Sequence record: NC_028881.1 | Length of the DNA: 64,000 bases | DNA from: Escherichia phage vb_EcoM-VR5 | Reading direction: 5' to 3' (one strand) | In this document: piece by piece, positions 7,587 to 64,000 of the stretch | Layout: each line of letters begins with the position of its first letter | How positions within the stretch are numbered: the first letter of the stretch is position 1 | Made by a program: the position numbers and the translations under genes | The notes under the pieces: model-generated | Seen by the model: only the letters and a program-made list of their open reading frames with translations | What the model was told of the DNA's origin: nothing | Databases searched by the model: none

Positions 7587-7615
7587 TTTTAATCTCCTCA
7601 TGTTTTGATAGGTTT

Positions 7616-7645
7616 ATAGTAACACGTGAGAACCTTGCTGTAAAC
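7616..7645 (-). promoter_or_regulatory. Early sigma70-like promoter for the antisense gene 7320..7586
   Basis: Minus strand GTTTAC, 18 nt, TACTAT, then leader with GAGGAG and ATG. Confidence 0.5.
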
Positions 7646-7687: not shown

Positions 7688-8968
7688 ATGGCAAAGATTA
7701 ACGAATTACTGCGCGAGTCAACAACTACTACCAGCAACTCATTGGGTCGCCCTAATCTTGTTGCTTTGACCCGTGCTACCACTAAACTAATTTATCGCGA
7801 TATCATCGCTGAACAGCGTACAAACCAGCCTATCGCTGCGTTATACGGTGTCAAATACCTTACCCCTGATAATGAATTTAGCTTCCAGACCGGTGCTACT
7901 TACGGTGGTGAAGTTGGTTCTAAAGACCGTGAAACTATCCCAGAATTAACAGATAAGTCCCAGGCTATTGCCAAGGGTGGCTACTTTAAGTATCAGAATG
8001 TGGTTTATAAGGCTTTGGTTGCAAGCCCACTCGCATCTACTAGCGCCATAGATTTGTCTGATGCTCTCCAAGAAGGTTTGGTGTCATTAACTTGCCGTCT
8101 TGTCCCTGATGCAGCTCATACCGAGAAATTCGAAGCTGGAGATGTTGAAATTAGTAATGCCGTGTTCCAGGTCAATAAATGGAACGCACCAGTTAAATCT
8201 CGTAAGCTGAAAACGGCTTTGACTGTAGAACTAGCCCAGGATATGGAATCTAATGGCTTTGATGCTCCAGCATTCCTTGAAGACCTCCTGGCTACAGTAA
8301 TGGCCGATGAAATTAACAAAGATGTTCTGCAGTCATTGATTACCGTATCTAAACGTTATAAAGTTACTGGTGTTTCTGATAACGGTATTATCGACCTTTC
8401 TTATGACTCTGCACCAGAATCTGCTCGTAAGCTGTACGAAATGGTTTGTGAAATGAATTCCGAAATCCAGAAAACAACTTCTTATTCCGCTACATTTGTT
8501 GTAGCTTCTTCACGTGTTGCTGCTATGCTTGCTGGTTCAGGTTGGTTAAAACACAAGCCGGAAGATGAGGCTTGGCTCCCGGAAACCGCGTATGGTTATT
8601 TGATTAATGGCTTACCTGTGTTCTGTGATGTGAATAGTCCATTGGATTATGTTACCGTAGGCGTTAAAGAAAACTATGGTGGTAATGAAGTTGTTGGTTC
8701 TATTTTCTATGCGCCGTATACTGAAGGCCTAGATTTAGATGATGAAGAACACGTCGGTGCTTATAAGGTAATTGTCGACCCAGACAGTTTACAACCTTCT
8801 ATTTCTCTGATGGTTCGTTATGCGTTGTCTGCCAACCCTTATACCGTAGCCAAAGATGATAAAGAAGCCCGTGTTATCGATGCAACTAATATGGACTTGA
8901 TGGCGGGCCAGAGCAATATGTCTTATCTGCTTGGTGTTAAATTGCCTAAAATAATTTATGAGGCGTAA
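7688..8968 (+). CDS. 24: Capsid vertex protein gp24 (T4-orthologous copy)
   Basis: 426 aa; N-terminus MAKINELLRESTTT...GRPNLVALTRATTKLIY matches T4 gp24 from memory; late promoter at 7652-7659. Confidence 0.9.
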   Translation: MAKINELLRESTTTTSNSLGRPNLVALTRATTKLIYRDIIAEQRTNQPIAALYGVKYLTPDNEFSFQTGATYGGEVGSKDRETIPELTDKSQAIAKGGYFKYQNVVYKALVASPLASTSAIDLSDALQEGLVSLTCRLVPDAAHTEKFEAGDVEISNAVFQVNKWNAPVKSRKLKTALTVELAQDMESNGFDAPAFLEDLLATVMADEINKDVLQSLITVSKRYKVTGVSDNGIIDLSYDSAPESARKLYEMVCEMNSEIQKTTSYSATFVVASSRVAAMLAGSGWLKHKPEDEAWLPETAYGYLINGLPVFCDVNSPLDYVTVGVKENYGGNEVVGSIFYAPYTEGLDLDDEEHVGAYKVIVDPDSLQPSISLMVRYALSANPYTVAKDDKEARVIDATNMDLMAGQSNMSYLLGVKLPKIIYEA

Positions 8969-10249
8969 ATGCAAAAGATTAACGCACTAATCCATGAATC
9001 AACTCTGACGGCGGCCAACTCGGTCGCTCGTCCTACTCTTCTCTCATATACTAAAGCTACTAACAAACGTATCTTTAAATCACTTGTAGCCGAACAAAAG
9101 ACACGCCAGCCTGTGGCGGCGCTTTATGGTATTCGTGTTCTGAACCCAGCAGATAAAATGACTTATCTTGGCGGCGCAACGTTTGCTGGTGAAATTGGTA
9201 TGTTTGAACGTTCTCAGATTCCAGAGGTAGTAGGTCCTAATGAAGCTTATGTCGTCGGTGATATGTTCCAATTTGAAAATGTTGTTTTCAAAGTACTAGA
9301 AGCATCTCCTTTCGCCGGTACAGCCGAAACTGAGATGGGTGAAGTTATTTCTGAAGCTATTGCTGCTGGTCATATTCGTATGGTTTCTGATGCGGCTCAG
9401 ACTTCTAAATTTGAAAAAGGTCATCCTGAGATTGCCGAAGCCGGATTCCGTATCGATAAATGGCAGACTGAAGTTAAATCTCGTAAGTTAAAAACTTCAT
9501 TAACTGTAGAACTAGCCCAAGACCTAGAATCCAATGGATTCAATGCCCCAGGATTTATCGAAGATATTCTTGGAATCCAGATGGCAGAGGAAATTAATAA
9601 GGACGTACTTCAGTCATTGATTACTGTAAGTTCCCGTTTTAAAGTCCAAGGTGTTTCTGAAAAAGGTGTTCTTAACCTTACAGACCCACAGTATGATAAT
9701 GCCCAAGACCGAGCTCGTACATTGTATTATTATATGTGTGAAATGAACTCAGCGGTCCAACGTAATACATCATTCGCTGGTACATATGCCGTAGCTAGTT
9801 CCCGTTGTGCCGCTATTCTTGCCGCGTCCGGCTGGGTCGAGAAAAAAGATGACCAAGACGAATTAGCTTATGGTGTTCTGAAGAACGGTCTACCACTTTA
9901 TGCTGATGTGAATAGTCCGTGTGATTATGTTATCGTCGGTGTGAATGCAGATATTGGTGAAGGACAGACGGTCGCATCTTTGTACTATGCGCCTTATGTG
10001 GAAGGCCTGGACAACGTAGATGATGAGGGTGATACTTCTGTAGGTGAATTCAAGGTTATCGTTGACCCTGAAAGCTTACAGCCTACCGTCGCCTTGTTGG
10101 CTCGATATGCACTGACAGCAAACCCGTATACCGTTGCCAAAGATGATAAAGAAGCTCGTATTATTGATGGGTCCGATATGGATAAGATGGCTAACCAAAG
10201 TCAATTGAGTTCTTATCTTGGTGTTAAACTTCCACCACTAGAAAAATAA
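8969..10249 (+). CDS. Capsid vertex protein gp24 paralog (second tandem copy)
   Basis: 426 aa, collinear with the preceding gp24 and sharing long identical motifs (KSRKLKT.LTVELAQD.ESNGF, EINKDVLQSLITVS, YALSANPYTVAKDDKEAR) but diverged elsewhere. Confidence 0.85.
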   Translation: MQKINALIHESTLTAANSVARPTLLSYTKATNKRIFKSLVAEQKTRQPVAALYGIRVLNPADKMTYLGGATFAGEIGMFERSQIPEVVGPNEAYVVGDMFQFENVVFKVLEASPFAGTAETEMGEVISEAIAAGHIRMVSDAAQTSKFEKGHPEIAEAGFRIDKWQTEVKSRKLKTSLTVELAQDLESNGFNAPGFIEDILGIQMAEEINKDVLQSLITVSSRFKVQGVSEKGVLNLTDPQYDNAQDRARTLYYYMCEMNSAVQRNTSFAGTYAVASSRCAAILAASGWVEKKDDQDELAYGVLKNGLPLYADVNSPCDYVIVGVNADIGEGQTVASLYYAPYVEGLDNVDDEGDTSVGEFKVIVDPESLQPTVALLARYALTANPYTVAKDDKEARIIDGSDMDKMANQSQLSSYLGVKLPPLEK

Positions 10250-11760: not shown

Positions 11761-13062
<1,302 letters not shown>

Positions 13063-17280: not shown

Positions 17281-17504
17281 AGTCCTTTAAAGAAGTTATC
17301 TATGAAGCCTCTATCGAGAGCTTCATGTCTAAAATTAGTTCTTGCCAAACCATGGACGGTTTGGAGGAATTGGAGAAGTATTACAAAACCCGAAGTAAAG
17401 AAGCCGAACTTCGTGATTCGGATGATATCAGTGTCCGTGATGCCCTAGCAGGTAAACGATCTGAATTAGAATCTATGGATGATGACGAAGAAGAAGAGTT
17501 CTAA
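17277..17504 (+). CDS. uvsW.1: UvsW.1-like small acidic protein
   Basis: 75 aa, start overlaps the uvsW stop; acidic C-terminus. Confidence 0.6.
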   Translation: MKSFKEVIYEASIESFMSKISSCQTMDGLEELEKYYKTRSKEAELRDSDDISVRDALAGKRSELESMDDDEEEEF

Positions 17505-17567
17505 AACAAAAAAAGGCCCAACCTTTCGGAAGGGCCAATAACCATAAAAATGGCTATACACACTAGA

Positions 17568-17735
17568 CTAAAGCAATAATTGTGTTTCGTTCAGCTGTTC
17601 TTCAGTGTTTTCCGTAACAGGCATGCTTTGAACGTAATTATAACATGGACCTGGATGAACCGGACCTTTTTCTGTTTCAACAACCAATGCAGCATCGATT
17701 GGAGTTTTACAGACAACGCAAATCTTATCTGACAT
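17568..17735 (-). CDS. Small Cys-containing protein (uvsY.-2 position)
   Basis: 55-aa ORF found by hand (below the ORF-track cutoff), MSDKICVVCKTP...; strong AAGGAG site 6 nt before the ATG. Confidence 0.45.
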   Translation of the reverse strand: MSDKICVVCKTPIDAALVVETEKGPVHPGPCYNYVQSMPVTENTEEQLNETQLLL

Positions 17736-17875
17736 GATTGTCTCCTTAGTTTATCTTACATATCTATTTATTACTCTTCATAATAGCAGCACGAGCTTTC
17801 ATCTCATTAACAATTTCGGTTATTCGGTTTGCAGAGATAACCATCTCGTCGAGAATCTTACTAATATTTTTTCAT

Positions 17876-18109
17876 TTAACTTTCCTTAAAGTATCTCATA
17901 CCCGTATCTATCCCCATATTGTGAGAATAGAACGCATCATCGATGTATCCTGCAAATTTACCTTTAACATAGATAACATCTTCACCACAAGGGTGGTCAG
18001 CGCAGATACGAATATCTGCACGATTCAATTTCCATTCCTTCATCATATACTTAATTTCTTCTTCGAACTCTTCGTCTTGGTTAAACGCATCGTCGATAGA
18101 ATATCGCAT
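17876..18109 (-). CDS. Hypothetical protein (uvsY.-1 position)
   Basis: 77 aa; its start overlaps the uvsY stop. Confidence 0.5.
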   Translation of the reverse strand: MRYSIDDAFNQDEEFEEEIKYMMKEWKLNRADIRICADHPCGEDVIYVKGKFAGYIDDAFYSHNMGIDTGMRYFKES

Positions 18110-25868: not shown

Positions 25869-26159
25869 TTACTTACGGAACGAAATGAAACCTGCTGCAG
25901 TCATTAAGGGTTGCTTTTTAACAAATACAGTAACTGAAATAGGAGCTTCGGATTCAAGCTGACCTGTCACTACACCATTAAAGATGTTTTCGGTTTGCTC
26001 AGGTTGTGAAAAATTTTCAACCGGGCGTAAGTCGAACTGCTTGTCTTCACCGAAAACACGACGTAATTCATTACCTACTGCACTGTCGAACTCTTCAGAA
26101 GCCGGGATAACGTTTTCAACTACCAGTTCTTGACCATTAAAGCGGAATGATGATTTCAT
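25869..26159 (-). CDS. Hypothetical early protein
   Basis: 96 aa; preceded on the minus strand by an early promoter and GAGGAG leader. Confidence 0.5.
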   Translation of the reverse strand: MKSSFRFNGQELVVENVIPASEEFDSAVGNELRRVFGEDKQFDLRPVENFSQPEQTENIFNGVVTGQLESEAPISVTVFVKKQPLMTAAGFISFRK

Positions 26160-26187
26160 AATGTTCTCCTCATGTTTGTGTAAGGTA

Positions 26188-26217
26188 ATAGTACCACATC
26201 CTTGTGGTGTTGTAAAC
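26188..26217 (-). promoter_or_regulatory. Early sigma70-like promoter for gene 25869..26159
   Basis: Minus strand GTTTAC, 18 nt, TACTAT; leader ...CATGAGGAGAACATT then ATG. Confidence 0.5.
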
Positions 26218-26219
26218 TG

Positions 26220-28268
26220 TTATCTGAATTTTTCCGGAAGGGCATTGATATCAGTCAATGCACACAGGATTTTATCAACTTCGTTATCTGAAGCTTCTTT
26301 AGATTCTGTAAGGAACCCAGAGAAAGATAATGTTTTGTTTACTGGTTCCAACTTACCGGATTCCAAGAACAAATCACCGTCGTAAACTACTTCGCTTTCG
26401 GCGACGATACGGTCCAGGTCCATTACTTCACACTCTAACAAGAAACGGTTAAAGGATTTAGACAGGCTAGCCGTAGTGGTCTTGTTAACTCGCAGTGTAG
26501 TACCACGTGGCAACAGAACTTCAGCCTCTTCAGGGTATTCAGACAAACTACCTGGCATAATAACCTTAATCTTCTCAATACCACGAATAACAAATGAGAT
26601 ATCAATCTTAGAATTACCTTCGGTTTTCAGTGCATTAGTTACTGTCTGGTTAGCATCTTGTGAACGCCAATCATCAGAGAATGCATGACCATCAGTATAA
26701 GTAGACGAGAAGTCATCTAATGTGATACCCATACCATTGCCGGACATTTGTCCAGGAACGTTACTAAAAATGTTAGGCTTCAACGAAGTAGAAACATAGT
26801 TACGGAAGTAGAATGTACGGCCTGTAATATTGCGACGAAGAGTATTAGAATCACCACCCTGACCACGATAAACCGTAGTACCCTTAGGCAAAGTTACACC
26901 TTTAGAGAACGCGCTATCAAGTTTCTCAATTTCACCTTCAACAAACTTAATGGAAGTATCCTCATCAGGAGTACCAAGCAAGAACGTGTTAATATCATAG
27001 AACGAGTTCATACAATATTCTGATACAGCCTGTTTTTCTTCCTTGGTAAGGTCTGCTTCTGGTTCAACGTTCTGGGCCACTTCATACGAATTGGTAAAAA
27101 CATCATCAATCATCTGAGTAATAATAGCCATAGGACGTTGAAGAGCCTGGGCCTTAACATCTACATCTACCGAAGAACCTGCAGTAATTTCACGAACAAT
27201 TCTTTGCATGATTTCGTACGAGTTTGTAGTATCAAGATTTTTAAATTCTTCAGCCATCAATCTAACGATGTCAGAAGGGTAATTTCTGGTACGTAGCTTA
27301 CCTTTAGCTTCGGATAATGCATCCATTAAAGAAGATACTTGAGGTGATAAACCGGAACTAGACGAAATATTAATATAAGCCAATTCAGATTGGGTTTTCT
27401 TAGCAAAGGTCTTCATAGAGGCTTCAAATGATTCGAATTCTTTAGATTTCTTACCATCTGATTTATATAAAGGAACTTCGTCATCATACTTAGCAAAGAT
27501 TTTAGCAGTCTCTGCATCGGCCTCAATATTTTCAGGAGTAACTGCGTATTGAGCCGCAATAGTAGCACGAACGTTTAATTTAGTACGAGAGATAACAGCC
27601 TTATCGGTACGCTTTTCTTCAACCTGCGCTACAGAAGCTACAACGGCTTCAACCTTACTTACGGCTTGGCCAGTTTTCTTGGAAACATAAACTTCGCCAA
27701 CTTTAGAATCAACTTTAGTATAAAGGTCAGCATCAATTTCCGGCATGCCTTTGATGTCTTCGATATTCGCACCACGACGTACTAAAAGAACGTAAGTATG
27801 TTTACCGCTGAACTGGAACATATCATTAACAACTTTAAACTTACCACCTGTACGAGCCATGGCCAAACGAGCCAATACACGTTGTACAGTAGGACCCTTA
27901 CCTTTCATTTTCTTAGTAGGGAAACGGAACAGAACTGCATCCATTTTAAGTTTATTTACTTGTTCATATACCGTATCGAAAATAGTATTCAATGCACCAA
28001 GTGGGTCAGAACCAAGTCCACCTTTGAGTTCAGCCGGGGCACCTTTGCTTGACAAACTCATTAGAATAACATGAACATATTTGTCACCTGGCTTAACCAT
28101 TTTAACTGCGTCTCCTTGAGACGCATAAGATACCATACGAGCCACAAGGTTATCATTACCTGGTGCTTGGATAGAGAAAATCTGTGGGATACCGGAACCT
28201 GGTTTAAGATTTGTTACTGGATAGTTTTTAGCTGAATCACTATCAAAAACTTCGTTTAAATTTTCCAT
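26220..28268 (-). CDS. alt: Alt-like ADP-ribosyltransferase, copy A
   Basis: 682 aa, the T4 Alt size; C-terminal region carries an Arg (YRGQ), an STS (YVSTSL) and an E-x-E (EAEVLLP) motif. Confidence 0.85.
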   Translation of the reverse strand: MENLNEVFDSDSAKNYPVTNLKPGSGIPQIFSIQAPGNDNLVARMVSYASQGDAVKMVKPGDKYVHVILMSLSSKGAPAELKGGLGSDPLGALNTIFDTVYEQVNKLKMDAVLFRFPTKKMKGKGPTVQRVLARLAMARTGGKFKVVNDMFQFSGKHTYVLLVRRGANIEDIKGMPEIDADLYTKVDSKVGEVYVSKKTGQAVSKVEAVVASVAQVEEKRTDKAVISRTKLNVRATIAAQYAVTPENIEADAETAKIFAKYDDEVPLYKSDGKKSKEFESFEASMKTFAKKTQSELAYINISSSSGLSPQVSSLMDALSEAKGKLRTRNYPSDIVRLMAEEFKNLDTTNSYEIMQRIVREITAGSSVDVDVKAQALQRPMAIITQMIDDVFTNSYEVAQNVEPEADLTKEEKQAVSEYCMNSFYDINTFLLGTPDEDTSIKFVEGEIEKLDSAFSKGVTLPKGTTVYRGQGGDSNTLRRNITGRTFYFRNYVSTSLKPNIFSNVPGQMSGNGMGITLDDFSSTYTDGHAFSDDWRSQDANQTVTNALKTEGNSKIDISFVIRGIEKIKVIMPGSLSEYPEEAEVLLPRGTTLRVNKTTTASLSKSFNRFLLECEVMDLDRIVAESEVVYDGDLFLESGKLEPVNKTLSFSGFLTESKEASDNEVDKILCALTDINALPEKFR

Positions 28269-28271
28269 TAT

Positions 28272-30326
28272 TTACCCTTGGATGAATTTTTCTGGCATAT
28301 CATTAAGATTCATACATGATGCTAAAAGAGGTAGTACATCAAACTTAGTTGATTTTACAAATGAGTCAAAAGATACAGGGTTTTCGGTAGTATCGAAATC
28401 ATCTTGATACACAACCAATTCACCGGTTTCCATTAACATGTTTCCATCATATACTACTGACTCTTGAAGCTCATCTGATGTCATAACTTCGGCTTGAACT
28501 AATTTATTATTAGTTTTAGAAGTACCGTCGTTATAAGAAGCATCTGTTATTTTATTAATTTTGAGCATTAACCCACGTGGAAGAATAATTTCCATTTCGT
28601 TAGAAGGAGCAAGACCTGCACCAGGGAACACCACGTTTATTTTGTGAGCACCTGAAATAGCCCAACCGATACCAACTTGGTCGTCATTAGACTTAACAAG
28701 TCCTTCATCCGATTTGTCTATGGAAACATCTAAACGGACTTCATCAGGCAGAGTACCTACTGAAGCATCTGTCATCCAAGTACCAAAAATATTAGGATAT
28801 AAAGATGTAGATACAAAGTTTCTGAAATAGAATACCTTGTTTTTAACCATTGCTTCGTAAATAGGTGGAATCATTTTCTGGGAACGATACAGTGTAATTC
28901 CTTCTGGTAATCTATCACCATTTTTAAAAGCATCATCTAAGTTATCAATAGCTTTTTCGATTTCCGGGCCAGTCAAAATACTAGAACGAACTTCTGGATT
29001 GTATATACCTAAAAGTGCATTGTTCATATCTTCATAACCGGAACCAACATACTCACGGATACCACGTTTTTGTGCTGGAGTATACTGGGTTTCATCTCGG
29101 TTATCAACAATAGAGAACATTGTCCAACCGGCAGCCAATGCAAATCCACGAATTTCTTTTTTAATGACCTTAGTCTTAGCGACGTTCCAAGAGCTTTCAG
29201 ACAATTCCATGGCTACAGTATAATCTAAATTAGAATGTTTAGCAAAGAATTTTCCTAACCAGGCACCTTTATATTCTTCAAGAACTTCGTTTAGTACTGA
29301 AGCAAAACTGCTTAATGCATCCATAGACGTTATAGGCTTACCGTGGATTTTTTGGAATGCACGAACTTTAACATCATGGTCGACTTCTTTTATTTTGCTT
29401 TTAGTTACTATTCCGCTATCGGCAAAGGCATCACCAACACCATTTATATTTGTAACTGTATTAAGAACACTTTCTAAAGAAAACGATGCGGTAGAAATAG
29501 TAGATAATTCGTTAGATTGTGGAATAAGTGGCGCGGTAGCAGGTTTACTTAATTCGGATGCAGAAGCTTCAAATTTGGTAAACATAGGTGTTTCAAAACG
29601 CGCTGATTCTAAGGATTGCGACATAGCAATAGCACGTCGTGAAATCTTGGTCTTAGTAATAACGGTTTTATCTGTACGGCGTTCTTCAACCTTAGCAATA
29701 CTACCTGCAATAGCGGTTTCTTTAGTAACCTGTACACCTTCTTTTTTGCTTACATAAACATCACCAACATCAGAATCAACTTTAGTATAAAGTTCAGCAT
29801 TAATTTCTGGAATACCTTTGATGTCTTCAATATTAGCTTGTTTACGGACAACTAAAATATAAGTATGCTTGCCAGTGAATTCATACATGGCAGGAACTAC
29901 TTTAAAACGGCCACCAGTTTTCTGTGCAACTAAACGTTGAATAAGGCGCTGTACGATAGGACCTTGTCCTTTCATTTTCTTAGTAGGAAAACGGAACATA
30001 ACCGCGTCCATACGAAGTTTTTTAACTTGCTCGTATACTACATCAAAAATGGTATTAATAGCATCAATAGGAGTTGCTCCTAAGCCACCTTTTAATTCGG
30101 CAGGGGCGCCTTTGGCTGACAGACTCATTAAAATAACGTGAGCATATTTGTCGCCTAATTTAACTTGTTTGATAGCATCACCTTCAGATGAATATGACAC
30201 CATACGTGCTACCAATTGAGACTCAACGCCGCCAATCTTCCAAATCTGTGGTACTTTAAGTTTCGGGTTCAAGTTTACAGTAGGTAATGTACCTTCAGAC
30301 TCGAACACTTCATTTAATTGGGTCAT
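28272..30326 (-). CDS. Alt-like ADP-ribosyltransferase, copy B (tandem paralog)
   Basis: 684 aa; N-terminal half near-identical in pattern to copy A; C-terminus has LYRSQ, FVSTSL and EMEIILP motifs. Confidence 0.85.
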   Translation of the reverse strand: MTQLNEVFESEGTLPTVNLNPKLKVPQIWKIGGVESQLVARMVSYSSEGDAIKQVKLGDKYAHVILMSLSAKGAPAELKGGLGATPIDAINTIFDVVYEQVKKLRMDAVMFRFPTKKMKGQGPIVQRLIQRLVAQKTGGRFKVVPAMYEFTGKHTYILVVRKQANIEDIKGIPEINAELYTKVDSDVGDVYVSKKEGVQVTKETAIAGSIAKVEERRTDKTVITKTKISRRAIAMSQSLESARFETPMFTKFEASASELSKPATAPLIPQSNELSTISTASFSLESVLNTVTNINGVGDAFADSGIVTKSKIKEVDHDVKVRAFQKIHGKPITSMDALSSFASVLNEVLEEYKGAWLGKFFAKHSNLDYTVAMELSESSWNVAKTKVIKKEIRGFALAAGWTMFSIVDNRDETQYTPAQKRGIREYVGSGYEDMNNALLGIYNPEVRSSILTGPEIEKAIDNLDDAFKNGDRLPEGITLYRSQKMIPPIYEAMVKNKVFYFRNFVSTSLYPNIFGTWMTDASVGTLPDEVRLDVSIDKSDEGLVKSNDDQVGIGWAISGAHKINVVFPGAGLAPSNEMEIILPRGLMLKINKITDASYNDGTSKTNNKLVQAEVMTSDELQESVVYDGNMLMETGELVVYQDDFDTTENPVSFDSFVKSTKFDVLPLLASCMNLNDMPEKFIQG

Positions 30327-34866: not shown

Positions 34867-34942
34867 TTTATTATCCTTTGGTTTGTTTTCGTATTATTTG
34901 GTACAGGTCTATAATAACACAACCTGTACCAAAGTAAAACAT

Positions 34943-35275
34943 TTATTTCACAACATTCCAATTTTTCATATCAAGTTTACCAACTTTTTTCATCTGAGTA
35001 ATCAGACGTTCGGCACGCTCACGAGCAGTAACATAATAGAATTCACCGATTTTGTTTTCTTCAATACGACCTGTAATTACAGTTTTCAGTTCGTAAATCC
35101 AACCTGTAAAGAAGTTGTGAAGCTCAATAGTAAAGGTGAAATCAGTACCCATACCTTCAGTGGTTTCAACTTCAATAATATCACCTTCAACTGCTGTCAG
35201 GACCCACATGGTTTCTTGATATTCACCGTTGAAACATTTAGCTTTAACAGATGCATTCAGGTTTACAGTTTTCAT
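34943..35275 (-). CDS. Hypothetical protein
   Basis: 110-aa ORF with an early-type promoter upstream. Confidence 0.5.
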   Translation of the reverse strand: MKTVNLNASVKAKCFNGEYQETMWVLTAVEGDIIEVETTEGMGTDFTFTIELHNFFTGWIYELKTVITGRIEENKIGEFYYVTARERAERLITQMKKVGKLDMKNWNVVK

Positions 35276-35374
35276 TTTATTCTCCAGTTTGTTTTCGTAT
35301 TATTTGGTACATGTCTATAGTATCATGCCTACCGGAGATGTACACCCTTTTTTTAAAGATTTAGAAACAAAAAT

Positions 35375-35392
35375 GGGACTCCGAAGAGTCCC
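35375..35392 (-). terminator. Hairpin GGGACTC-CGAA-GAGTCCC after the 53-aa basic ORF
   Basis: 7-bp stem with tetraloop 6 nt beyond the small ORF stop. Confidence 0.5.
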
Positions 35393-35397
35393 ATAAC

Positions 35398-35559
35398 TTA
35401 TGCAATCACTTTACCGAAGCAAGCAGCATCTGCACGCAATACTGCACGAGCACGAGCTTGAAGCTTATCAACTACCTGATTGATACGCTTGTTGGACGCA
35501 CGCTTGTAACCAGCGCGTTTAGAGGTCCCGTCAACTACTTTAACTTCTTTCTTAGCCAT
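35398..35559 (-). CDS. Small basic protein (53 aa), unlisted ORF
   Basis: Hand-translated MAKKEVKVVDGTSKRAGYKRASNKRINQVVDKLQARARAVLRADAACFGKVIA; a GC hairpin (35375-35392) follows its stop. Confidence 0.4.
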   Translation of the reverse strand: MAKKEVKVVDGTSKRAGYKRASNKRINQVVDKLQARARAVLRADAACFGKVIA

Positions 35560-35954
35560 TATAAAATCTCTTTAAATGAAAATGCAGGACTTATTGGCAT
35601 TGCCTGCGCAAGCCCTCAAGGGGAACATAGGTTTTGGATATTTAACGACAGGATAACCATAAACCTCGTCATCATACTTATAGCTCTTATCTGTTGCACA
35701 CCGTTAGCTTAAAGGTTCCGGGTTCGATTTCTCGAGGATAAGATATATACTGATGGGTATATAGGCCTTGAGGCGTACTCCCGATTGGCCATCACCTCGG
35801 GGTAGCATGCACTTGCCGCTATAAAATAACATTCAAGAGGTACACCGTAAAACTGCCGGGGTCTTAAAACTATAATGATTCTCAAATCATTAATCAGACA
35901 GTTCGACGGCTCCTCGATTTTCTAGCCGCACTAAGGTAGCGAATCACCTAAAAC

Positions 35955-36203
35955 TTATTTAAGGGTAATAACAAAATGACGTACTGCTTTACGAGCTGCA
36001 GAAGCCAAAGGCTTAGCAAATTTCAGTTCATCTTTAGCTTCCAGCTCAGAAGCCAGGGCAGCCTGTACCGGGTTCAGATGTTTGAAATAACGCAGGATTT
36101 CCAGTGCTTCGGCTTCAACATCAATAGATGCGCCATAGTTTTCGTGACCGTTGTTCCAAGCGTTGCGTTGCAGTTCAAGAGCGTGATTCAGATGTTTGTT
36201 CAT
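35955..36203 (-). CDS. rIII: rIII-like lysis inhibition accessory protein
   Basis: 82 aa (the T4 rIII size) adjacent to gene 31; assignment by size and synteny only. Confidence 0.55.
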   Translation of the reverse strand: MNKHLNHALELQRNAWNNGHENYGASIDVEAEALEILRYFKHLNPVQAALASELEAKDELKFAKPLASAARKAVRHFVITLK

Positions 36204-36349
36204 TTTAGTTTCTCAATTCGAGATAAAGATTGGTGGACACGTTCTTCTGAATTTCACTTCCTTTCGGCAAGTCTCTCAGTTGTAGTCCACCGCTTAGAAT
36301 TGTTCGGTTAACTTATTATTCCGACACCCAATTCATATTATTATTTATA

Positions 36350-36673
36350 TCACTTATAAAGACACGGAATAGCTTTATAGTGACAAGTAACGAATTTCTG
36401 TTTAATTTCTTTAGGCTGTTTAATACCTAATGCAACTAATGGATGAGGCACGTTAGCAATCTTACCGACAGGAAGTGGGGTCAAATCACCTACTTCACAA
36501 AAATCTTCAGGGACATCAGGTCCTACAGAATAAACTTCACAGAGTTCAGGGATTTCACCTTGATGAAGTTTGCCAATAACGATACCTGATGCAGTAGTTT
36601 CTTCATCACCAGCTTGTTTTGGTTCGGAAACGAGAATAATATATTCTCCGACCGCTTTAATAGGAAGTTCCAT
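36350..36673 (-). CDS. 31: Head assembly co-chaperonin gp31 (GroES-like)
   Basis: 107 aa; I.AVGEY.ILVSEP.QAGDEE...[19 protein letters not shown]...[17 protein letters not shown] matches T4 gp31 from memory. Confidence 0.9.
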
Positions 36674-38380: not shown

Positions 38381-38934
38381 CAGATAGTCTCCAACTTAAG
38401 TTGTCTTGTAGTGGTAGCTTGGGTAACGTCGCCTTTGACGATATAACACACTTGTTGGAACGAATTAATCAAAAGCTCCTCGGCTTGTCGATCAGCTTGT
38501 TCCTTTGTGTTATGGCGAGAATGAACTGTAATCTTACCATTTTTAACTACAAGCACTTTCCAGTCGGCAGTAGTTTTTACAGGTTTAGGCTCATCATTTT
38601 CAGGAATACTCACTGATGCCAATGGACGTACCACTTCAATAAAGCATTCAAATTCATGGCCAAAAAAGCCTGCTGAATTAAAAAGAATACTATTTGAATC
38701 ATCAGGATTACCGGTGATTTTACTCAGGTCAACAAACATCATCTCATCATGTACACGAATTCGGCTTACACTTTCGCGACCATTATGATAATCAATTTCA
38801 ACTTCAAATGGATTCATACCTACATACTTGGCAAAAGCAGTGTTAAGCCTGTAAGCACCGTTATTAGTGAATTTATTTTTATAATGCTCGCTTATAAATT
38901 TGTAAAACTTACGTTCTTCAAAGAACTTACCCAT
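38380..38934 (-). CDS. Hypothetical protein
   Basis: 184-aa ORF with an early-type promoter (38963-38992) upstream. Confidence 0.5.
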   Translation of the reverse strand: MGKFFEERKFYKFISEHYKNKFTNNGAYRLNTAFAKYVGMNPFEVEIDYHNGRESVSRIRVHDEMMFVDLSKITGNPDDSNSILFNSAGFFGHEFECFIEVVRPLASVSIPENDEPKPVKTTADWKVLVVKNGKITVHSRHNTKEQADRQAEELLINSFQQVCYIVKGDVTQATTTRQLKLETI

Positions 38935-38962
38935 TTCGATTTCCTCATGTGTTGGTAGGACT

Positions 38963-38992
38963 ACTATACCACAGTCCTACCATGGTGTAAAC
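38963..38992 (-). promoter_or_regulatory. Early sigma70-like promoter for gene 38380..38934
   Basis: Minus strand GTTTAC, 18 nt, TATAGT. Confidence 0.45.
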
Positions 38993-42241: not shown

Positions 42242-42729
42242 TTTGTAATAATCTCGATGATGTCATCACGTGACAGGGAATTAATAAGAACCGTTTTAGG
42301 ATTTTCACACTGAATTTTGTATGTTTCAAACATCACACACAATTCTTCAGAGGTATGGTAAGGACTTGAAATACCGAGGCGATTAGTTTTATCACCCAGT
42401 GGGTCGCAAATCAAATAGAAAGTGATGCCATCGATTTTAACATTAGGTTGACTGATATTAATGAACACGTTGGCATCATATTTGGAAAGGTTGTTCTGAA
42501 GGAATTCGACCATAGCATTAACAGCTTCCGGCATGGCTTCACGTTTCTCTTCAGTATAACGAGTAGAATATTCTTTTTGTTTAATTTTCTTTTTAGCATT
42601 ACGAGCCATCGTAACACGAAGGTCGGTGAGGTAACCAACTGCACGAGAACCTTTAAAAACTTGGATACCGTCAGTTGAGTCACCATAAGCCTTAACAATC
42701 ATTTCGTTAGTGATAAGTTGCATGTTCAT
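42229..42729 (-). CDS. alc: Alc-like protein (by synteny only)
   Basis: About 166 aa from the ATG at 42727-42729 (GAGGAG leader); lies between rnlA and the spanins as alc does in T4. Confidence 0.45.
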   Translation of the reverse strand: MNMQLITNEMIVKAYGDSTDGIQVFKGSRAVGYLTDLRVTMARNAKKKIKQKEYSTRYTEEKREAMPEAVNAMVEFLQNNLSKYDANVFINISQPNVKIDGITFYLICDPLGDKTNRLGISSPYHTSEELCVMFETYKIQCENPKTVLINSLSRDDIIEIITKCLN

Positions 42730-42757
42730 AATGTTCTCCTCATGTTTGTGTAAGGTC

Positions 42758-42786
42758 ATACTATCACATCATGAGGAGATGTAAAC
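42758..42786 (-). promoter_or_regulatory. Early sigma70-like promoter for the alc-like gene
   Basis: Minus strand GTTTAC, 17 nt, TAGTAT; leader identical to that of gene 25869..26159. Confidence 0.5.
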
Positions 42787-50254: not shown

Positions 50255-50482
50255 TTATTTTTGAATTAAGCCCATATAAAATTCAGCATCTTCAGCATGC
50301 ATACCATCACAATACTCGTCAGCCATAAAACGAGTCAGGTCTTCAAGAGGGCCTTGGATTTCAATTTGGATACTAAAGAATTGAGTATCTTTGATGTAAG
50401 CCATACTCAAAGAAGGATAACGATTACGGATAACTTCGTAAGTGTATTCAAAATCAACGATATCAATATTAACATTAGCCAT
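50255..50482 (-). CDS. Hypothetical protein
   Basis: 75-aa ORF with an early-type promoter and GAGGAA leader upstream (50512-50540). Confidence 0.5.
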
Positions 50483-50511
50483 TTTATTTTCCTCATGTAG
50501 TTGATAGGTCT

Positions 50512-50540
50512 ATAGTATCATGTTTAAAGATATTGTAAAC
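50512..50540 (-). promoter_or_regulatory. Early sigma70-like promoter for gene 50255..50482
   Basis: Minus strand GTTTAC, 17 nt, TACTAT, then GAGGAA leader. Confidence 0.45.
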
Positions 50541-50544
50541 TACT

Positions 50545-50814
50545 TTATGAAATTTTATCGAGCCATTTACCAAGTTTAATCATTTCTTTGGTGGCCTTTT
50601 CCATACTTCTGAACTTAACTAATAAAGGATAAGTATCTACACCCATAACTAAAGTGGTTACAAGACTATGCTCACCTACAAGCCATAGAGAATACGTTTG
50701 AATATCAAGTCCGTAATTTCGGTCTTTATGAACACGTACACCCATCACTTCAAACTGTTTACTGGCTTTTTCTACTGCATCCAGGAAATCATCTTTAGTC
50801 ATATTAAATTCCAA
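50545..50814 (-). CDS. Hypothetical protein
   Basis: 89-aa ORF overlapping its upstream neighbour by about 11 nt. Confidence 0.5.
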   Translation of the reverse strand: MEFNMTKDDFLDAVEKASKQFEVMGVRVHKDRNYGLDIQTYSLWLVGEHSLVTTLVMGVDTYPLLVKFRSMEKATKEMIKLGKWLDKIS

Positions 50815-51169
50815 AGGTAGCTTTAATCAGGGCAATGACTTCAGCCGCATTTTTATGATTTACCTGCACATGAATGGTTTGCGTGTCAACAACAGGAGCA
50901 TCTTCATCAACTTCCAGGAAGTGACGGAATTCACCTTCAGCGAGTTCAAAGTACTCATCAGCATCATCCATACTATCCAGGATGGTGCCATCTTTCATTT
51001 CAACTTTTTCGACAAAATAATCGCCATCAATATAGCACATATCCAGGACTTTGAAGGAACTGCCATGCTGTTCCATCAGCTTGACCATGCGCGAATTATC
51101 ATCTGGACAGTCGGCGATGAAACGTTTTTTAGCAGCAGGGTCTAATACGTAAGTTTTACCAGTTTCCAT
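50804..51169 (-). CDS. Hypothetical acidic protein
   Basis: 121-aa ORF with an early-type promoter and GAGGAA leader upstream (51198-51226). Confidence 0.5.
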   Translation of the reverse strand: METGKTYVLDPAAKKRFIADCPDDNSRMVKLMEQHGSSFKVLDMCYIDGDYFVEKVEMKDGTILDSMDDADEYFELAEGEFRHFLEVDEDAPVVDTQTIHVQVNHKNAAEVIALIKATFGI

Positions 51170-51197
51170 TTTTATTTCCTCATGTTTTGATAGGTCT

Positions 51198-51226
51198 ATA
51201 GTATCATGTTCCTAGAGGGTGTAAAC
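51198..51226 (-). promoter_or_regulatory. Early sigma70-like promoter for gene 50804..51169
   Basis: Minus strand GTTTAC, 17 nt, TACTAT, then GAGGAA leader. Confidence 0.45.
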
Positions 51227-51241
51227 CATTAAATGCCAAAA

Positions 51242-61007: not shown

Positions 61008-61015
61008 GAGGCATT

Positions 61016-64000
61016 ATGGCTACTTTAAAACAGATACAATTTAAAAGAAGTAAAGTAGCTGGTGTACGTCCTACGCCAGCACAGTTGGCTGAAGGTGAGC
61101 TGGCTATTAACTTAAAGGACCGTTTACTTTTTACTAAAGACGACTCTGGCGCTATCATCGACCTTGGCTTTGCTAAGGGCGGTAATATTGATGGTAATGT
61201 TATTCACAAAGGTAATTATAACCAAACCGGTAATTATACTTTAAATGGTACCTTTACTCAGACAGGTAATTATACGACAACCGGAAGTGTAACGGCCAAC
61301 GGTGATGTTACAGCGAAATCTCGTCTAATGACAGATAATGGTGAAGTTCTTGTACGGGGTGCAGGAACCGCCCACGTTCGATTCCAGGATTTGGCTGATG
61401 CGCGTGAAAGAGGCATAATTTATTCACAATCACGCCCAGGAAATACCAAGCAAATCTTGAACGTTCGTGTCCAGGATTATACTAATTCAACATCTAATAT
61501 TTTTGCATTCAATGGTGACGGTTTATTTTATGCTCCATCTATTTCCGGTGGAACATCGATAAAATCTCCGGTAATTTATACTAATACCGTTGATACCGGT
61601 AATAAATCAGCTCTTGATTATGATATATCTTCATTGGCAAATAATAATTCTAACACAGATAAAAATAATTTGCGCGTTGTACGTACTGATGCAACCGCCG
61701 CAATGCTCCATGAAATTTGTGAAAATAACGGTATCAGTTGGTATTCTGGTTCAACCCCTACTGATTATATATTATCTTTTGCTTATTCGGGTGGTTTTCA
61801 AGCAGGCCATTCGATTGCAGTAGGTATGGAATCAGGGCCTATGACATATTCAGCCTTAGGTAAAGGTTCTATTGCTTTAGGTGATAATGATACCGGCTTA
61901 AAATGGCATCAAGATGGATATTTTCATACAGTAAACAACGGCACTAGAACTTTCATCTACGGTCCAGAAGAAACCGCTAGCCTTAGAAAAATGGTTATAG
62001 GTTATTCTGTAAATGGTACTGATTTAACTACGCCGCCGACAGAAAACTATGCGCTTGGTACCGTTGTTACTTATCATGATAATAACGCCTTCGGTGATGG
62101 ACAAACTCTTTTAGGATATTATCAAGGTGGAGCATACCACCACTATTTTCGTGGTAAAGGCACTACAAACATTAACACCGCGGGTGGTTTGTTAGTTACT
62201 CCAGGCAATATCGACGTGATTGGCGGTTTAATTAATATCGACGGTCGCAGTAATGCTTCAACCTTACTGTTTAGTAGCTATACTTCTGGTCAAAGCTCTG
62301 TCGATAATATGAATATACGCGTTTGGGGCGATACTTTTGCTACTGTAGGTGGTACTCGCAAAAACGTAATGGAAATATCTGATGCCACTAGCTGGATGCA
62401 CTATATTCAACGAACTACAGCAGGTAAAGTCGAATCTTATTTAAACGGCGCGATGAACATCGTCGAAGGATTGTCTGTCGGTCAAGATGCATCCTTAAAA
62501 CGCAATCTGTACGTTTCCAATGAAATTAAAGTTCGCGGTTCTAGTGGACTTCGTATTTGGAACGATAAGTATGGTGTTATTTTCCGAAATTCAGAAGACC
62601 AGCTGCATATTATCCCAACCAATATTAATGCCGGCGAAAGTGGCGGATTAGGCCCATTACGCCCATTAAGTATTACGTTAGACACGGGCCGGGTTAAAAT
62701 CCCTAACTTAGAAGCAGACCAGGTTTATTTTAGGGGTAATGGTGCATTGGAATTCCCTAATAGTAACGGTGCATCTTATGCCAACCAGAACACGACTAAA
62801 GCTCTGTTGTATCAAACGCTCGATGCTGCAACTCAAGCATTTTATCCTATTACTAAGCAGAAAAATATCGATTCGAATGTAACTGTTACTCAAGGTATGG
62901 ACCGCGCTACGAGCGAATACCGAATTGTTGCTCAAGGTGATTTGCTTGGTGATGGTGATGCTACAGGATTAAAATACTGGCGCTTTACTAAAGAAGGTAA
63001 CTTCATAACTCAGAACCACTTATATGCCGGTACAGCCTTCTTGGACACTGAAGGTAACATTTCTGGTTCTATCTGGAACAAATACTCTGGCGCCACTAAC
63101 CTTGATGCAGCGGTGAATACCCGTGTCGGTAAAAGCGGTGATACAATGACCGGAAAATTGACTATTGAGGCTCCGGGTGATGCATTAGTATTAAGAACAA
63201 CCACAGGTAATAGCTCGCATATCCGTTCTGATGTAAATGGTACGGGCAACTGGTACGTTGGTAAAGGTGGCGATGATAACGGGATAGCCCTTTATAGTTA
63301 TGCTACCAATTCTGGTATGTACATCACTAATAGCGGCGCTTTCAACGTAGAACTTTCCGGCTCCGGCTTAGCAATGCAGATGAATTATTATCGCATGTAT
63401 GTTAATGGTCGCCAATGGGTTGCTTCACAGGGTCATGGTTATGGAAACCAATGGCAAACCGAAGCTCCTTATTTCGTTGACTTTGGCGAGGCTGTTCCTA
63501 AAGATAGTTATATGCCGATTATCAAAGGAAGAAGCACTCTAATTACCGATGGATATTCTACTAAAGCAGACTTCGGTATTATTCGAAGCGCTGGAGCATC
63601 TACATGGGGTTCTGCTGTTATTCGTGTGGGTTCTGCTGAAAGCGGTGATGCAAGTCATCCTAATGCTATATACGTTTTTGGCGCCGACGGCACCTTAACC
63701 GCTCCCAATGCTGTGAATGCCGCATCTAGAATGGGTGTCGGTACATCATGTTCATTACCAAATGCTTCTATTGCTATTGGCGATAACGATACAGGTCTTT
63801 CCACTAGAGGTGATGGTAGTCTAGGCGCGTATGCTAATGCTCAGAGTGTATTTTTCTGGGAAGCGGGTGGTATTACGACCGAGCAAAACAAATTCTTAAA
63901 CGTTAACGCAGGGATGTATGTTCGTGATAACATTGATGTTAACGACGTTTATATCCGTTCTGATATTCGTTGTAAGTCAGAAATTAAGCTTATTGAGAAC
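61016..64000 (+). CDS. 37: Long tail fibre distal subunit gp37, N-terminal part (continues past window end)
   Basis: ATG at 61016 starts a frame (MATLKQIQFKRSKVAGVRPT...) still open at position 64000; position after gene 36. Confidence 0.85.
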   Translation, partial: MATLKQIQFKRSKVAGVRPTPAQLAEGELAINLKDRLLFTKDDSGAIIDLGFAKGGNIDGNVIHKGNYNQTGNYTLNGTFTQTGNYTTTGSVTANGDVTAKSRLMTDNGEVLVRGAGTAHVRFQDLADARERGIIYSQSRPGNTKQILNVRVQDYTNSTSNIFAFNGDGLFYAPSISGGTSIKSPVIYTNTVDTGNKSALDYDISSLANNNSNTDKNNLRVVRTDATAAMLHEICENNGISWYSGSTPTDYILSFAYSGGFQAGHSIAVGMESGPMTYSALGKGSIALGDNDTGLKWHQDGYFHTVNNGTRTFIYGPEETASLRKMVIGYSVNGTDLTTPPTENYALGTVVTYHDNNAFGDGQTLLGYYQGGAYHHYFRGKGTTNINTAGGLLVTPGNIDVIGGLINIDGRSNASTLLFSSYTSGQSSVDNMNIRVWGDTFATVGGTRKNVMEISDATSWMHYIQRTTAGKVESYLNGAMNIVEGLSVGQDASLKRNLYVSNEIKVRGSSGLRIWNDKYGVIFRNSEDQLHIIPTNINAGESGGLGPLRPLSITLDTGRVKIPNLEADQVYFRGNGALEFPNSNGASYANQNTTKALLYQTLDAATQAFYPITKQKNIDSNVTVTQGMDRATSEYRIVAQGDLLGDGDATGLKYWRFTKEGNFITQNHLYAGTAFLDTEGNISGSIWNKYSGATNLDAAVNTRVGKSGDTMTGKLTIEAPGDALVLRTTTGNSSHIRSDVNGTGNWYVGKGGDDNGIALYSYATNSGMYITNSGAFNVELSGSGLAMQMNYYRMYVNGRQWVASQGHGYGNQWQTEAPYFVDFGEAVPKDSYMPIIKGRSTLITDGYSTKADFGIIRSAGASTWGSAVIRVGSAESGDASHPNAIYVFGADGTLTAPNAVNAASRMGVGTSCSLPNASIAIGDNDTGLSTRGDGSLGAYANAQSVFFWEAGGITTEQNKFLNVNAGMYVRDNIDVNDVYIRSDIRCKSEIKLIEN

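Follow-up and report, generated by a model that had tools for sequence, protein, structure and literature searches.

A conserved structured RNA domain in the rIII-30.9 spacer of T4-type phages

INTRODUCTION

The aptamers of lysine (L-box) and purine riboswitches and the packaging RNA (pRNA) of phage phi29 are the described RNAs whose architecture appears closest to that of M2, a structured domain located between genes rIII and 30.9 in a 64,000-nucleotide (nt) stretch of Escherichia phage vb_EcoM-VR5 (sequence record NC_028881.1; this whole stretch is hereafter called the window). Both riboswitch classes combine a closing helix with a multi-helix junction (five-way or three-way), a covarying loop-loop contact and invariant junction nucleotides, and the lysine riboswitch contains a 6-base-pair (bp) intramolecular kiss between its loops L2 and L3. 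The pRNA, a phage non-coding RNA of ~120-170 nt, also has a multi-helix junction and complementary, covarying loops, which pair intermolecularly over 4 bp, and it binds the packaging motor of Bacillus podoviruses. T4-type myoviruses package their DNA without RNA. Small non-coding RNAs are known from T-even phages as well: T4 rnaC and rnaD (the species 1 and 2 RNAs) are stable, are cut out of longer transcripts and lie in the transfer RNA (tRNA) cluster, and rnaC ends in a true tRNA-like T arm. Finally, ROOL and GOLLD are ornate RNAs of 500-800 nt, with an elaborate conserved tertiary structure, that occur in Firmicutes and their prophages. A preprint describes them as forming multimers (bioRxiv 10.1101/2024.12.08.627333).

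T4-type phages are among the most studied viruses, yet the rIII-30.9 spacer is blank or misannotated in most of their records. The T4 spacer (AF158101, positions 130541-130784) bears no annotation, the region is not mentioned in a preprint on differential RNA sequencing and NAD capping in T4, and our full-text literature search, to which the large uncurated collections of viral RNA motif predictions did not belong, turned up no account of an RNA at this place. A preliminary description of the window had singled out this interval of about 395 nt as lacking a convincing open reading frame (ORF), and had suggested a small structured RNA, a tRNA remnant, or a regulatory or recombination site. Here we show by comparative analysis that the spacer contains an RNA domain of defined fold and strand, which is under strong purifying selection, cassette-like in its autonomy and restricted to phages, and we weigh what this RNA may do.

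RESULTS

A covarying RNA fold

We aligned 17 and later 23 distinct M2 copies from ~10 genera, which included Dhaka-, Tequatro-, Gapriver-, Moon-, Karam-, Teguna-, Muldoon-, Kagamiyama-, Kanagawa- and Slopekvirus as well as Klebsiella T4-like phages. RNAalifold proposed 38 pairs, 21 of which showed compensatory double changes; the closing helix P0 and a helix between the loops of P2 and P3 (L2 and L3) were added by inspection, giving a full model of 47 pairs in eight helices. Under this model 96.4% of 1059 cells were paired, compared with 85.7 ± 0.5% in shuffled alignments and 30-43% when partners were slid by 1-3 columns. More than half of the pairs (28 of 47) changed on both sides (12.3 ± 2.3 after shuffling), and the covariation score was 0.337 (0.142 after shuffling); none of 500 shuffles reached the observed values of pairing and covariation. 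The centroid fold of the single sequence also recovered P0-P6.

Because MAFFT mis-registered the long L2 loops in three lineages, the loop-loop helix was scored directly. It consisted of exactly six contiguous Watson-Crick pairs in all 23 distinct copies, in the form of five different hexamer pairs (UGAUGG/CCAUCA, CGAUGG/CCAUCG, CUAUGG/CCAUAG, CAAUGA/UCAUUG and UGCAUU/AAUGCA), compared with an average of 3.8 pairs for non-cognate loops and 3.2 for shuffled loops. The inner L2 pairs proposed by RNAalifold were superseded by this kissing helix.

M2 is built from P0, a linker-free four-way junction of P0, P1, P3 and P4, and a nested three-way junction (Table 1). The sequences of P0 differ among phages, for example UAAAC/GUUUA in Klebsiella, AUAAGC/GCUUAU in Citrobacter and UAGUAG/CUACUA in Slopekvirus. 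P1 (GGC at 35815-35817 with GCC at 35764-35766) joins P0 without a linker base, and its arm continues through a conserved internal loop, AAGUGCA (consensus AAGnGCA) opposite CGCCUCAAG, into P2 (35797-35807 with 35776-35784). The P2 loop (L2, 35785-35796) measures 12-17 nt among the copies and holds the kissing hexamer UGAUGG at 35789-35794, and the 6-nt L3 (CCAUCA, 35751-35756) is wholly spent on pairing with it. Around the junction the 3' strand of P1 adjoins P3, P3 adjoins P4 and P4 adjoins P0. P4 (35737-35743 with 35685-35691, 7 bp) opens into the three-way junction, one strand of which, GCAACA at 35692-35697 (also written GUGUGCAACA), is invariant. P5 usually has the GNRA-capped form UCGA-GAAA-UCGA (35724-35735) and is peripheral, since a longer stem replaces it in Slopekvirus; P6 pairs 35719-35723 with 35698-35703 and carries the conserved loop ..GA(A/C)CC...AGCUAA. 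Two single-stranded blocks, GGYAAGnGCAU and GCUAAYRGUGUGCAAC, were invariant across the copies, and the scaffold presents them. Stacking of the four-way junction would set the P2 arm beside P3, thereby allowing the kiss, and P4 beside P0.

Such geometry bears on whether the kiss forms within one molecule. L2 and L3 could instead pair between molecules, hand in hand as in phi29 pRNA, so that M2 would assemble into dimers or rings and act as a scaffold. In every copy all bases of L3 are paired with L2, and the loops covary, a pattern that is blind to the difference between intra- and intermolecular contacts; furthermore, the 7-bp P3 is much shorter than the arm of P1, internal loop and P2, and an intramolecular kiss would therefore need a sharp bend. 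Multimerization has also been described for ROOL and GOLLD in the preprint cited above (bioRxiv 10.1101/2024.12.08.627333). However, stacking of a four-way junction places neighbouring arms next to each other, which would favour an intramolecular contact, and there is no sign of a partner structure such as a packaging motor. The 6-bp L2-L3 kiss of the lysine riboswitch provides an intramolecular precedent. Overall, we consider assembly of this kind improbable.

The minus strand, on which the fold is read, contained 67 G·U cells and only 4 A·C cells; one pair was G·U in 22 of 23 copies and another was U·G in 17 of 23, and pairing fell from 96.4% to 90.5% when the plus strand was read. Thus, transcription of the RNA runs in the same sense as that of rIII and 30.9. 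The suggestion of a small structured RNA is strongly supported by these results, on the strand opposite to that on which the T-loop-like motif had been noted.

The same results bear on the possibility that the gap works as DNA, that is, as a cluster of promoters and terminators, a replication origin or a recombination hotspot whose conservation reflects protein-binding sites. The GenBank record ATK47 labels a 10-bp 'ori type 2 repeat' in its gap, one of the flanking modules (module A, below) resembles, in our own reading, a middle promoter of the MotA-box type, and the gap is a site of module shuffling among phages. On the other hand, compensatory changes in eight helices, the excess of G·U over A·C cells and a covarying loop-loop helix are signatures of folded RNA rather than of sites in duplex DNA. 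A sigma-70 promoter and terminator scan of 35200-36400 returned two promoter-like sites and one terminator-like site, none of them in the modules of the gap; counts in this interval were at or below the shuffle means, with nothing above shuffled expectation inside the gap. We also know of no T4 origin that maps to this region. A purely DNA-level function is thus very improbable; the notion of a regulatory or recombination site may still hold for the flanking modules, whereas the evidence for the core points elsewhere.

Conservation, distribution and mobility of M2

The covariance model R1 detected one copy of M2 in the window (35683-35819, minus strand, 165 bits, E = 2.6e-41). M2 of the window was 99% identical to that of Tequatrovirus SHFML-26 and 94% identical to those of Klebsiella and Citrobacter (Moonvirus) phages, compared with 60-83% for the flanking genes rIII, 30.9, 31 and 30.8 between the same phages. 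Judged by these values, M2 appears to be under stronger constraint than its neighbouring genes. All helices were also kept in more diverged copies, namely those of Serratia and Aeromonas phages (83-84%), Yersinia phages (82% over about half of M2) and phage EcS1 (72%), as well as that of Slopekvirus, which falls within the same range of 72-84%.

Based on BLAST searches, M2 occurs in ~405 phage records, compared with ~1122 that encode rIII, and its hosts are T4-like phages of Enterobacterales (and Aeromonas). R1 found no M2 in T4, Mosigvirus, Gualtarvirus or an Acinetobacter phage. No copy lies downstream of rIII in the Gualtarvirus and Acinetobacter phages, and in T4, Mosigvirus and others precisely the M2 block is missing while its flanks are retained. 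Matches in viral contigs and metagenomes that fitted the model were all on T4-type-like contigs, including all long contigs, and the metagenome matches were all of the common M2 type; four additional viral-contig matches to an 18-mer were chance hits inside coding sequence. Two pattern scans for the conserved core in 185,579 bacterial and archaeal species genomes (one genome each) gave no match.

A second locus was found in Slopekvirus K41P2 and two metagenomic relatives. Here M2 lies in a spacer of the uvsY-uvsW region, flanked by small ORFs towards uvsY and by the convergently oriented uvsW helicase gene, and the stretch ends at a hairpin that is annotated as a terminator in the record of phage Miro. 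No convincing ORF follows this copy on its strand, and among the Slopekvirus records listed most have no M2 at the site. Given its patchy presence, the changing order of the modules around it and this second locus, M2 behaves as a self-contained, optional cassette.

The distribution also bears on the alternative that M2 is a cis-acting sensor in the 30.9 leader, either an aptamer like that of a riboswitch or the target of a binding protein (perhaps gp30.9), and that its folded state controls translation or stability of the message downstream. M2 has the look of an aptamer, with its variable closing helix, multi-helix junction, loop-loop contact and invariant junction bases; at the rIII locus it is always upstream of 30.9 and on the same strand; the hairpin UUUCUCCAAAAUGGAAGA, which buries the Shine-Dalgarno (SD) sequence of 30.9 in many non-E. 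coli relatives, would suit an expression platform; and gp30.9 is a lysine/arginine-rich protein of 53 amino acids (aa). However, 50-190 nt of other modules, in an order that varies by genus, separate M2 from the start of 30.9, P0 is followed neither by a fixed expression platform nor directly by a terminator, phages such as T4 and Mosigvirus retain 30.9 and the remaining leader in the absence of M2, and no convincing ORF follows the Slopekvirus copy on the same strand. We therefore regard control of 30.9 in cis as unlikely, although it is the strongest of the alternatives considered here.

Comparison with known RNA families

No Rfam 15 family matched any part of the window at gathering thresholds. 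At E <= 10 nothing was found in 35670-35840, and within 35200-36300 the only hit was a chance match to wcaG (E = 7) outside the gap; the Slopekvirus copy had no Rfam match over M2 either. M2 is thus an RNA family without a match in Rfam 15.

With regard to riboswitches, M2 resembles the lysine and purine classes in having what looks by analogy like a conserved aptamer core closed by a variable helix (five of six P0 pairs covary and the junction bases are invariant). It differs from them in its core, a four-way junction with a nested three-way junction, and in the lack of sequence or covariance-model similarity (Rfam 15, E <= 10). Moreover, no fixed adjacent expression platform with a consistently regulated gene was found; M2 lies in a spacer of lytic phages, and one copy has no downstream gene. 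Complementary covarying loops of the kind known from pRNA are present in M2 (23 of 23 copies, five sequence variants), but the kiss spans 6 bp, the RNA is optional and belongs to T4-type myoviruses, there is no detectable relatedness to pRNA (Rfam 15), and no homology or phi29-like packaging-gene setting was found in this genome, which is that of a T4-type myovirus. M2 shares with ROOL and GOLLD the association with phages or prophages and an elaborate conserved structure; it is far shorter (145 nt), is found in T4-like phages, and again lacks an Rfam match. As for rnaC and rnaD, which like M2 are small non-coding RNAs of T-even phages, T4 has both of them and no M2, and R1 run with filters off over the T4 tRNA region gave no match over either, the best chance score being 10.9 bits elsewhere.

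A further alternative is that M2 belongs to a new class of catalytic RNAs, self-cleaving or other, and processes the polycistronic rIII-30.9 transcript. Small self-cleaving ribozymes (hammerhead, twister and HDV-like) are common in phage genomes, and such a role would fit an RNA that lies between two cistrons, folds compactly with a contact between two loops and has invariant unpaired bases at both of its junctions. In contrast, M2 showed no similarity at E <= 10 to any Rfam 15 ribozyme (hammerhead, twister, twister-sister, pistol, hatchet, hairpin, HDV and glmS), its 145 nt exceed most small self-cleaving ribozymes, and no candidate cleavage site can be named. A catalytic M2 therefore seems quite unlikely, more so than a sensor acting in cis.

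Overall, M2 could not be assigned to the lysine or purine riboswitches, pRNA, tRNA, T4 rnaC/rnaD or any Rfam 15 family. It is an orphan, complex-folded, phage-borne non-coding RNA.

Non-coding status of the spacer

The reported lack of a convincing ORF was borne out: the spacer (35560-35954, 395 nt) lies between rIII and 30.9, and its two short ORFs (58 aa with a TTG start, and 42 aa) matched no PHROG or Pfam family. All six frames of M2 contained stops in every scorable copy (22 of 23). Parts of the gap are conserved in ~1000 phage records at 90-98% identity, and with its dense compensatory changes the region as a whole differs greatly from random sequence. In none of the relatives is this place occupied by an intact tRNA or ORF.

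The remaining alternative was that the interval is what is left of a tRNA gene, or that it holds a small protein gene which annotation has missed. The former had been suggested by a T-loop-like string, GGTTCGATT, which is indeed present at 35721-35729, and M2 shares with tRNA a four-way junction, a terminal closing helix and a loop-loop contact; the latter could draw on the short hypothetical proteins annotated over the stretch in some GenBank records. However, the string is antisense to covarying helices: it is the complement of AAUCGAACC, in which the last part of the GAAA tetraloop is followed by the 3' strand of P5 and the beginning of P6. Its plus-strand flanks are not complementary, so that no 5-bp T-stem can form, the kissing arms of M2 are adjacent (the second and third) rather than D and T, and the arm lengths are wrong for a tRNA. 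ARAGORN found no tRNA or transfer-messenger RNA in the 64-kb window and no tRNA in 18 orthologous loci from ~12 genera, and T4 rnaC and rnaD were not matched by the M2 model. Together with the stops in every frame of both strands (22 of 23 copies scorable) and the lack of a PHROG family for the gap ORFs, these results leave a tRNA or small-gene origin hardly any probability, and it may be regarded as already refuted as far as sequence analysis allows.

Automatic annotation has placed 'hypothetical proteins' and even a '1,4-alpha-glucan branching enzyme' on M2 (OL770107, OQ845958, PV402692, PQ341120, OR352951 and others). These protein annotations are spurious, because no frame is open across the homologues.

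The other small motifs that had drawn attention to the interval also exist, and carry little weight on their own. TATAAT lies exactly at 35871-35876, outside every site returned by the promoter scan; it is antisense to the transcript and falls, together with part of the CGGCT...AGCCG pair, within module 1b. The latter pair is present as well, at 35907-35911 and 35924-35928, one base from the position first given. The two GGCC tetramers were correctly placed at 35764-35767 and 35787-35790, but the idea that they pair was dropped: they are not partners in the supported structure, where one consists of the end of J2/1 and the 3' strand of P1 and the other of the end of the kissing hexamer and two loop bases, and the kissing helix supersedes their pairing.

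Other modules of the spacer

The layout of the spacer was derived from a gap alignment of ten phages and inspection of 24 loci. The gap consists of discrete blocks that are present, absent or reordered among phages. The order in the window and in SHFML-26 is rIII-A-1b-M2-3a-H-stem-30.9; that of T4 is the same without M2, and Mosigvirus has another short filler where M2 would be. Klebsiella and Serratia phages have the order rIII-3a-A-M2-H, Aeromonas phage PS49 and EcS1 have rIII-H-M2-3a, and in Citrobacter Moonvirus M2 starts at the rIII stop codon. The coordinates of all features are given in Table 1.

Module 3a, which is upstream of M2 in Serratia and Klebsiella phages and downstream of it in E. 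coli phages, forms an H-type pseudoknot with stems S1 (GAC(G)AGG/CCUGUC) and S2 (GGUU of the hairpin loop paired to AACC of the 3' tail). Among 18 distinct copies including T4, 75% of cells were paired, compared with 31-49% after sliding, despite register problems, and the covariation score was 0.344 (0.146 after shuffling). In T4 the pseudoknot is found at AF158101 ~130620-130670, where it is apparently unannotated, and it is present in nearly all relatives examined. The pseudoknot in the T4 gene 32 mRNA leader is a similar case, as both are conserved H-type pseudoknots in the 5' leader of an early gene of T-even phages; module 3a differs in sequence and in the gene concerned, and its support is comparative only.

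Module 1b is present in Tequatro-, Dhaka-, Mosig- and Gaprivervirus. Its long imperfect hairpin contains an apical hairpin, UUAAUGAUU-UGAG-AAUCAUUAU, at 35872-35893, and direct reading of VR26 showed a compensatory change (GCCAU/AUGGU for GCCGU/ACGGU). Module H, which showed the highest conservation of all blocks in alignment A1, precedes M2 in some genera and follows it in others. Pairing of the J2/1 strand of M2 (GCCUCAAGGC) with hairpin H (CCCUUGAGGG) was considered and rejected, as H varies without matching changes in M2 (locus L011, Serratia and Aeromonas phages).

Module A recurs as a conserved block in T4 and in Klebsiella, Yersinia and Karamvirus-like phages; in those of Klebsiella and Yersinia it is followed immediately by M2. 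Direct reading gave a stem of 3-4 bp that changes from CGC/GCG in the window to CAC/GUG in T4 and UGC/GCA in Klebsiella; the module may act as an RNA hairpin or as a MotA-type promoter. The T4 copy (TTCACTGCCTTAGTGTGAGCTAA) shared 18 of 23 ungapped positions with the type I-F CRISPR repeat, a level that none of 500 shuffles attained. We rejected a solitary type I-F repeat acting as an RNA anti-CRISPR, since the Cas6f hairpin CUGCC-loop-GGCAG is not kept: the 3' arm GUGAG of the T4 module leaves three of the five Cas6f stem pairs, and the copy in the window is more diverged. The likeness in T4 may be due to chance or to a decayed solitary repeat.

The end of the 30.9 leader also differs among phages. 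In the window a putative stem precedes the ribosome-binding site, while in most non-E. coli relatives the leader ends in UUUCUCCAAAAUGGAAGA, as observed in Klebsiella, Citrobacter, Serratia and Karamvirus-like phages (loci L006, at ~1230-1260, L008, L024, L026, L019 and others). This hairpin pairs an anti-SD-like UCUCC with the 30.9 SD sequence GGAAGA, which suggests that it may exert translational control of 30.9.

Table 1. Positions of the genes, RNA modules and helices of the rIII-30.9 region in the window
Feature	Position	Strand	Description	Basis
rIII	35955..36203	-	Coding sequence, 82 aa; upstream gene of the transcription unit	ORF; named rIII in JS98 and others
Module A	35917..35949	-	AGGUGAUUCGCUACCUUAGUGCGGCUAGAAAAU; small hairpin CGC-UACCUUAGU-GCG at 35926-35942	Conservation
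Module 1b	35834..35916	-	Long imperfect hairpin (GAGG/CCUC, GCCGU/ACGGU, CUGUC/GGCAG)	Minimum free energy fold
M2	35679..35823	-	Core structured RNA domain, 145 nt, P0 5' strand to P0 3' strand	Covariance model, covariation
P0, 5' strand	35818..35823	-	UAUAGC, pairs with GCUAUA at 35679-35684	Helix 1; 5 of 6 pairs change on both sides
P1-P2 arm	35764..35817	-		Helices 2 and 3; columns 25:59 of the alignment hold an invariant G·U
P3 hairpin	35744..35763	-	UAUAUAC-CCAUCA-GUAUAUA, 7 bp	Helices 4 and 5
P4 arm	35685..35743	-		Helices 6-8; all 4 P5 pairs and 5 of 7 P4 pairs covary
Module 3a	35627..35677	-	H-type pseudoknot, preceded by conserved GUAUGAUG	Covariation
Module H	35609..35626	-	Hairpin GUUCCCCUUGAGGGCUUG, consensus GUACCC-loop-GGGGCUUG	Alignment A1
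Stem	35584..35607	-	GCAGG-N14-CCUGC just before the 30.9 ribosome-binding site	Direct reading
SD region and gene 30.9	35398..35573	-	AAAGAG..AUG and coding sequence	ORF; PHROG 1427
Terminator	35373..35394	-	Intrinsic, after 30.9; 9-bp stem, UUCG loop, T run	Terminator scan

Genome context

Megablast placed the window within the JS98 group of T4-type phages (Dhakavirus), and phages NC-G, CLB_P2 and JS98 matched 35300-36300 at 95-96% identity. The minus strand reads cd, 31.2, 31.1, 31, rIII, the gap, 30.9 and 30.8 onward. The equivalent spacer of JS98 (352 nt) is the longest in its annotated 30.4-cd stretch, where the others measure -1 to 160 nt. Since 30.9 and then the terminator follow, the gap is part of a transcription unit that ends just past 30.9. 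The coding part of 30.9 (35398-35559, minus strand, 53 aa) matched PHROG 1427 (E = 6.5e-26); its product is a basic protein, rich in lysine and arginine, whose homologues are confined to T4-like phages. No solved relative of gp30.9 was found in the PDB, and the names of its homologues were uninformative. Behind the 30.9 terminator a repeated cassette, read as early-promoter-like, was observed at 35277-35325 and again at 34871-34919 (family D18).

Other observations in the window

Repeated intergenic cassettes of 45-60 nt were also present at 7568-7632, 26155-26200, 38931-38979, 42725-42770, 50469-50549 and 51150-51235. The cassettes form families D9-D11, D15, D18 and D20, and on the minus strand they read like T4-type early promoters after terminator hairpins (PeSL-like). 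On the plus strand, 9-nt periodic repeats (GGT ATT CAA GGT ...; families D1-D3 and D6) at 11833-12627 encode a collagen-like Gly-X-Y pattern within a coding region. Diverged tandem duplications with 70-75% identity (D4, D5, D7 and D8) were found between 8096-8946 and 9377-10233 and between 27592-28145 and 29659-30212, at spacings of 1281-1287 and 2067 nt; these pairs are probably paralogous genes. An apparent second ORF-free gap at 61008-64000 (plus strand) was rejected, because an ORF of >1008 aa (MATLKQIQFKRSKVAG...), which we take to be the tail-fibre gene for gp34, runs off the end of the window. Finally, 17281-17920 comprises 640 nt without an ORF of at least 80 aa, including 371 nt without one of at least 60 aa, and may hold small genes or another non-coding element.

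DISCUSSION

The best combined explanation of these results, to which we give about an even chance, is that the gap is a transcribed non-coding spacer of the rIII-30.9 unit, composed of a chain of independently folding RNA modules, one of which, M2, acts in trans as an accessory RNA. Taken separately, the trans-acting mechanism is more tentative and falls somewhat short of even odds.

M2 would be transcribed as part of the rIII-30.9 message. Co-transcription with rIII is the more likely source because in Citrobacter phages, PS49 and EcS1 M2 starts 0-28 nt past the rIII stop codon with no detectable promoter. A promoter of its own at the 5' edge of M2 was considered and rejected: some lineages have weak -10-like hexamers, and no promoter was detectable in Aeromonas PS49, EcS1 and the Citrobacter phages. 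The closed, compact fold, protected by P0, would then allow M2 to persist as a stable RNA and to engage a conserved partner by way of the invariant bases in its junctions and loops; this partner could be a host or phage protein, or further M2 copies joined through the kissing loops. Such an RNA would serve host takeover or counter-defence rather than as a switch for the neighbouring gene. A role in trans is favoured because the cassette works in different module orders and at a second locus without a downstream gene, and because phages can retain 30.9 and yet do without M2. Accessory host-takeover and counter-defence genes show the same kind of patchy distribution with horizontal mobility.

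Several points weigh against this explanation. First, the single-sequence folding energy of M2 is not exceptional (z = -1.6) and that of the whole gap is unremarkable (minus strand, z = -1.3; plus strand, z = -0.9), so that the evidence for M2 is comparative and not energetic. Second, processing into a stable RNA is something that we infer, and the sequence of M2 points to no particular partner in trans. Third, the position of M2 upstream of 30.9 in the same orientation, found in more than 95% of the genomes, would also suit a cis role. Fourth, the very high identity of M2 between genera could partly reflect recent horizontal spread instead of constraint, which is countered by the fact that diverged copies keep every helix. 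Finally, the motif may already have been predicted in one of the uncurated viral RNA sets.

With these points in mind, M2 as a trans-acting accessory RNA could be an RNA decoy or inhibitor that neutralises an RNA-binding defence or a nuclease of the host, in effect an RNA-based counter-defence gene passed on as a cassette among phage genera. More broadly, it is possible, though less likely than not, that M2 is the founding member of a new functional class of RNAs carried by T4-type phages, be it a self-cleaving ribozyme, a ligand-sensing aptamer or a counter-defence RNA. Sequenced phages with M2 number ~400, and among them are many Klebsiella, E. coli and Enterobacter phages that were isolated for therapeutic use. 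At a minimum, recognition of M2 corrects the annotation of this region, supplies a covariance model that is well defined, and offers structural and genetic studies a small and tractable target. If a partner or an activity were found, M2 would represent a new RNA player in the conflict between phages and their hosts, or a new class of ribozyme or aptamer.

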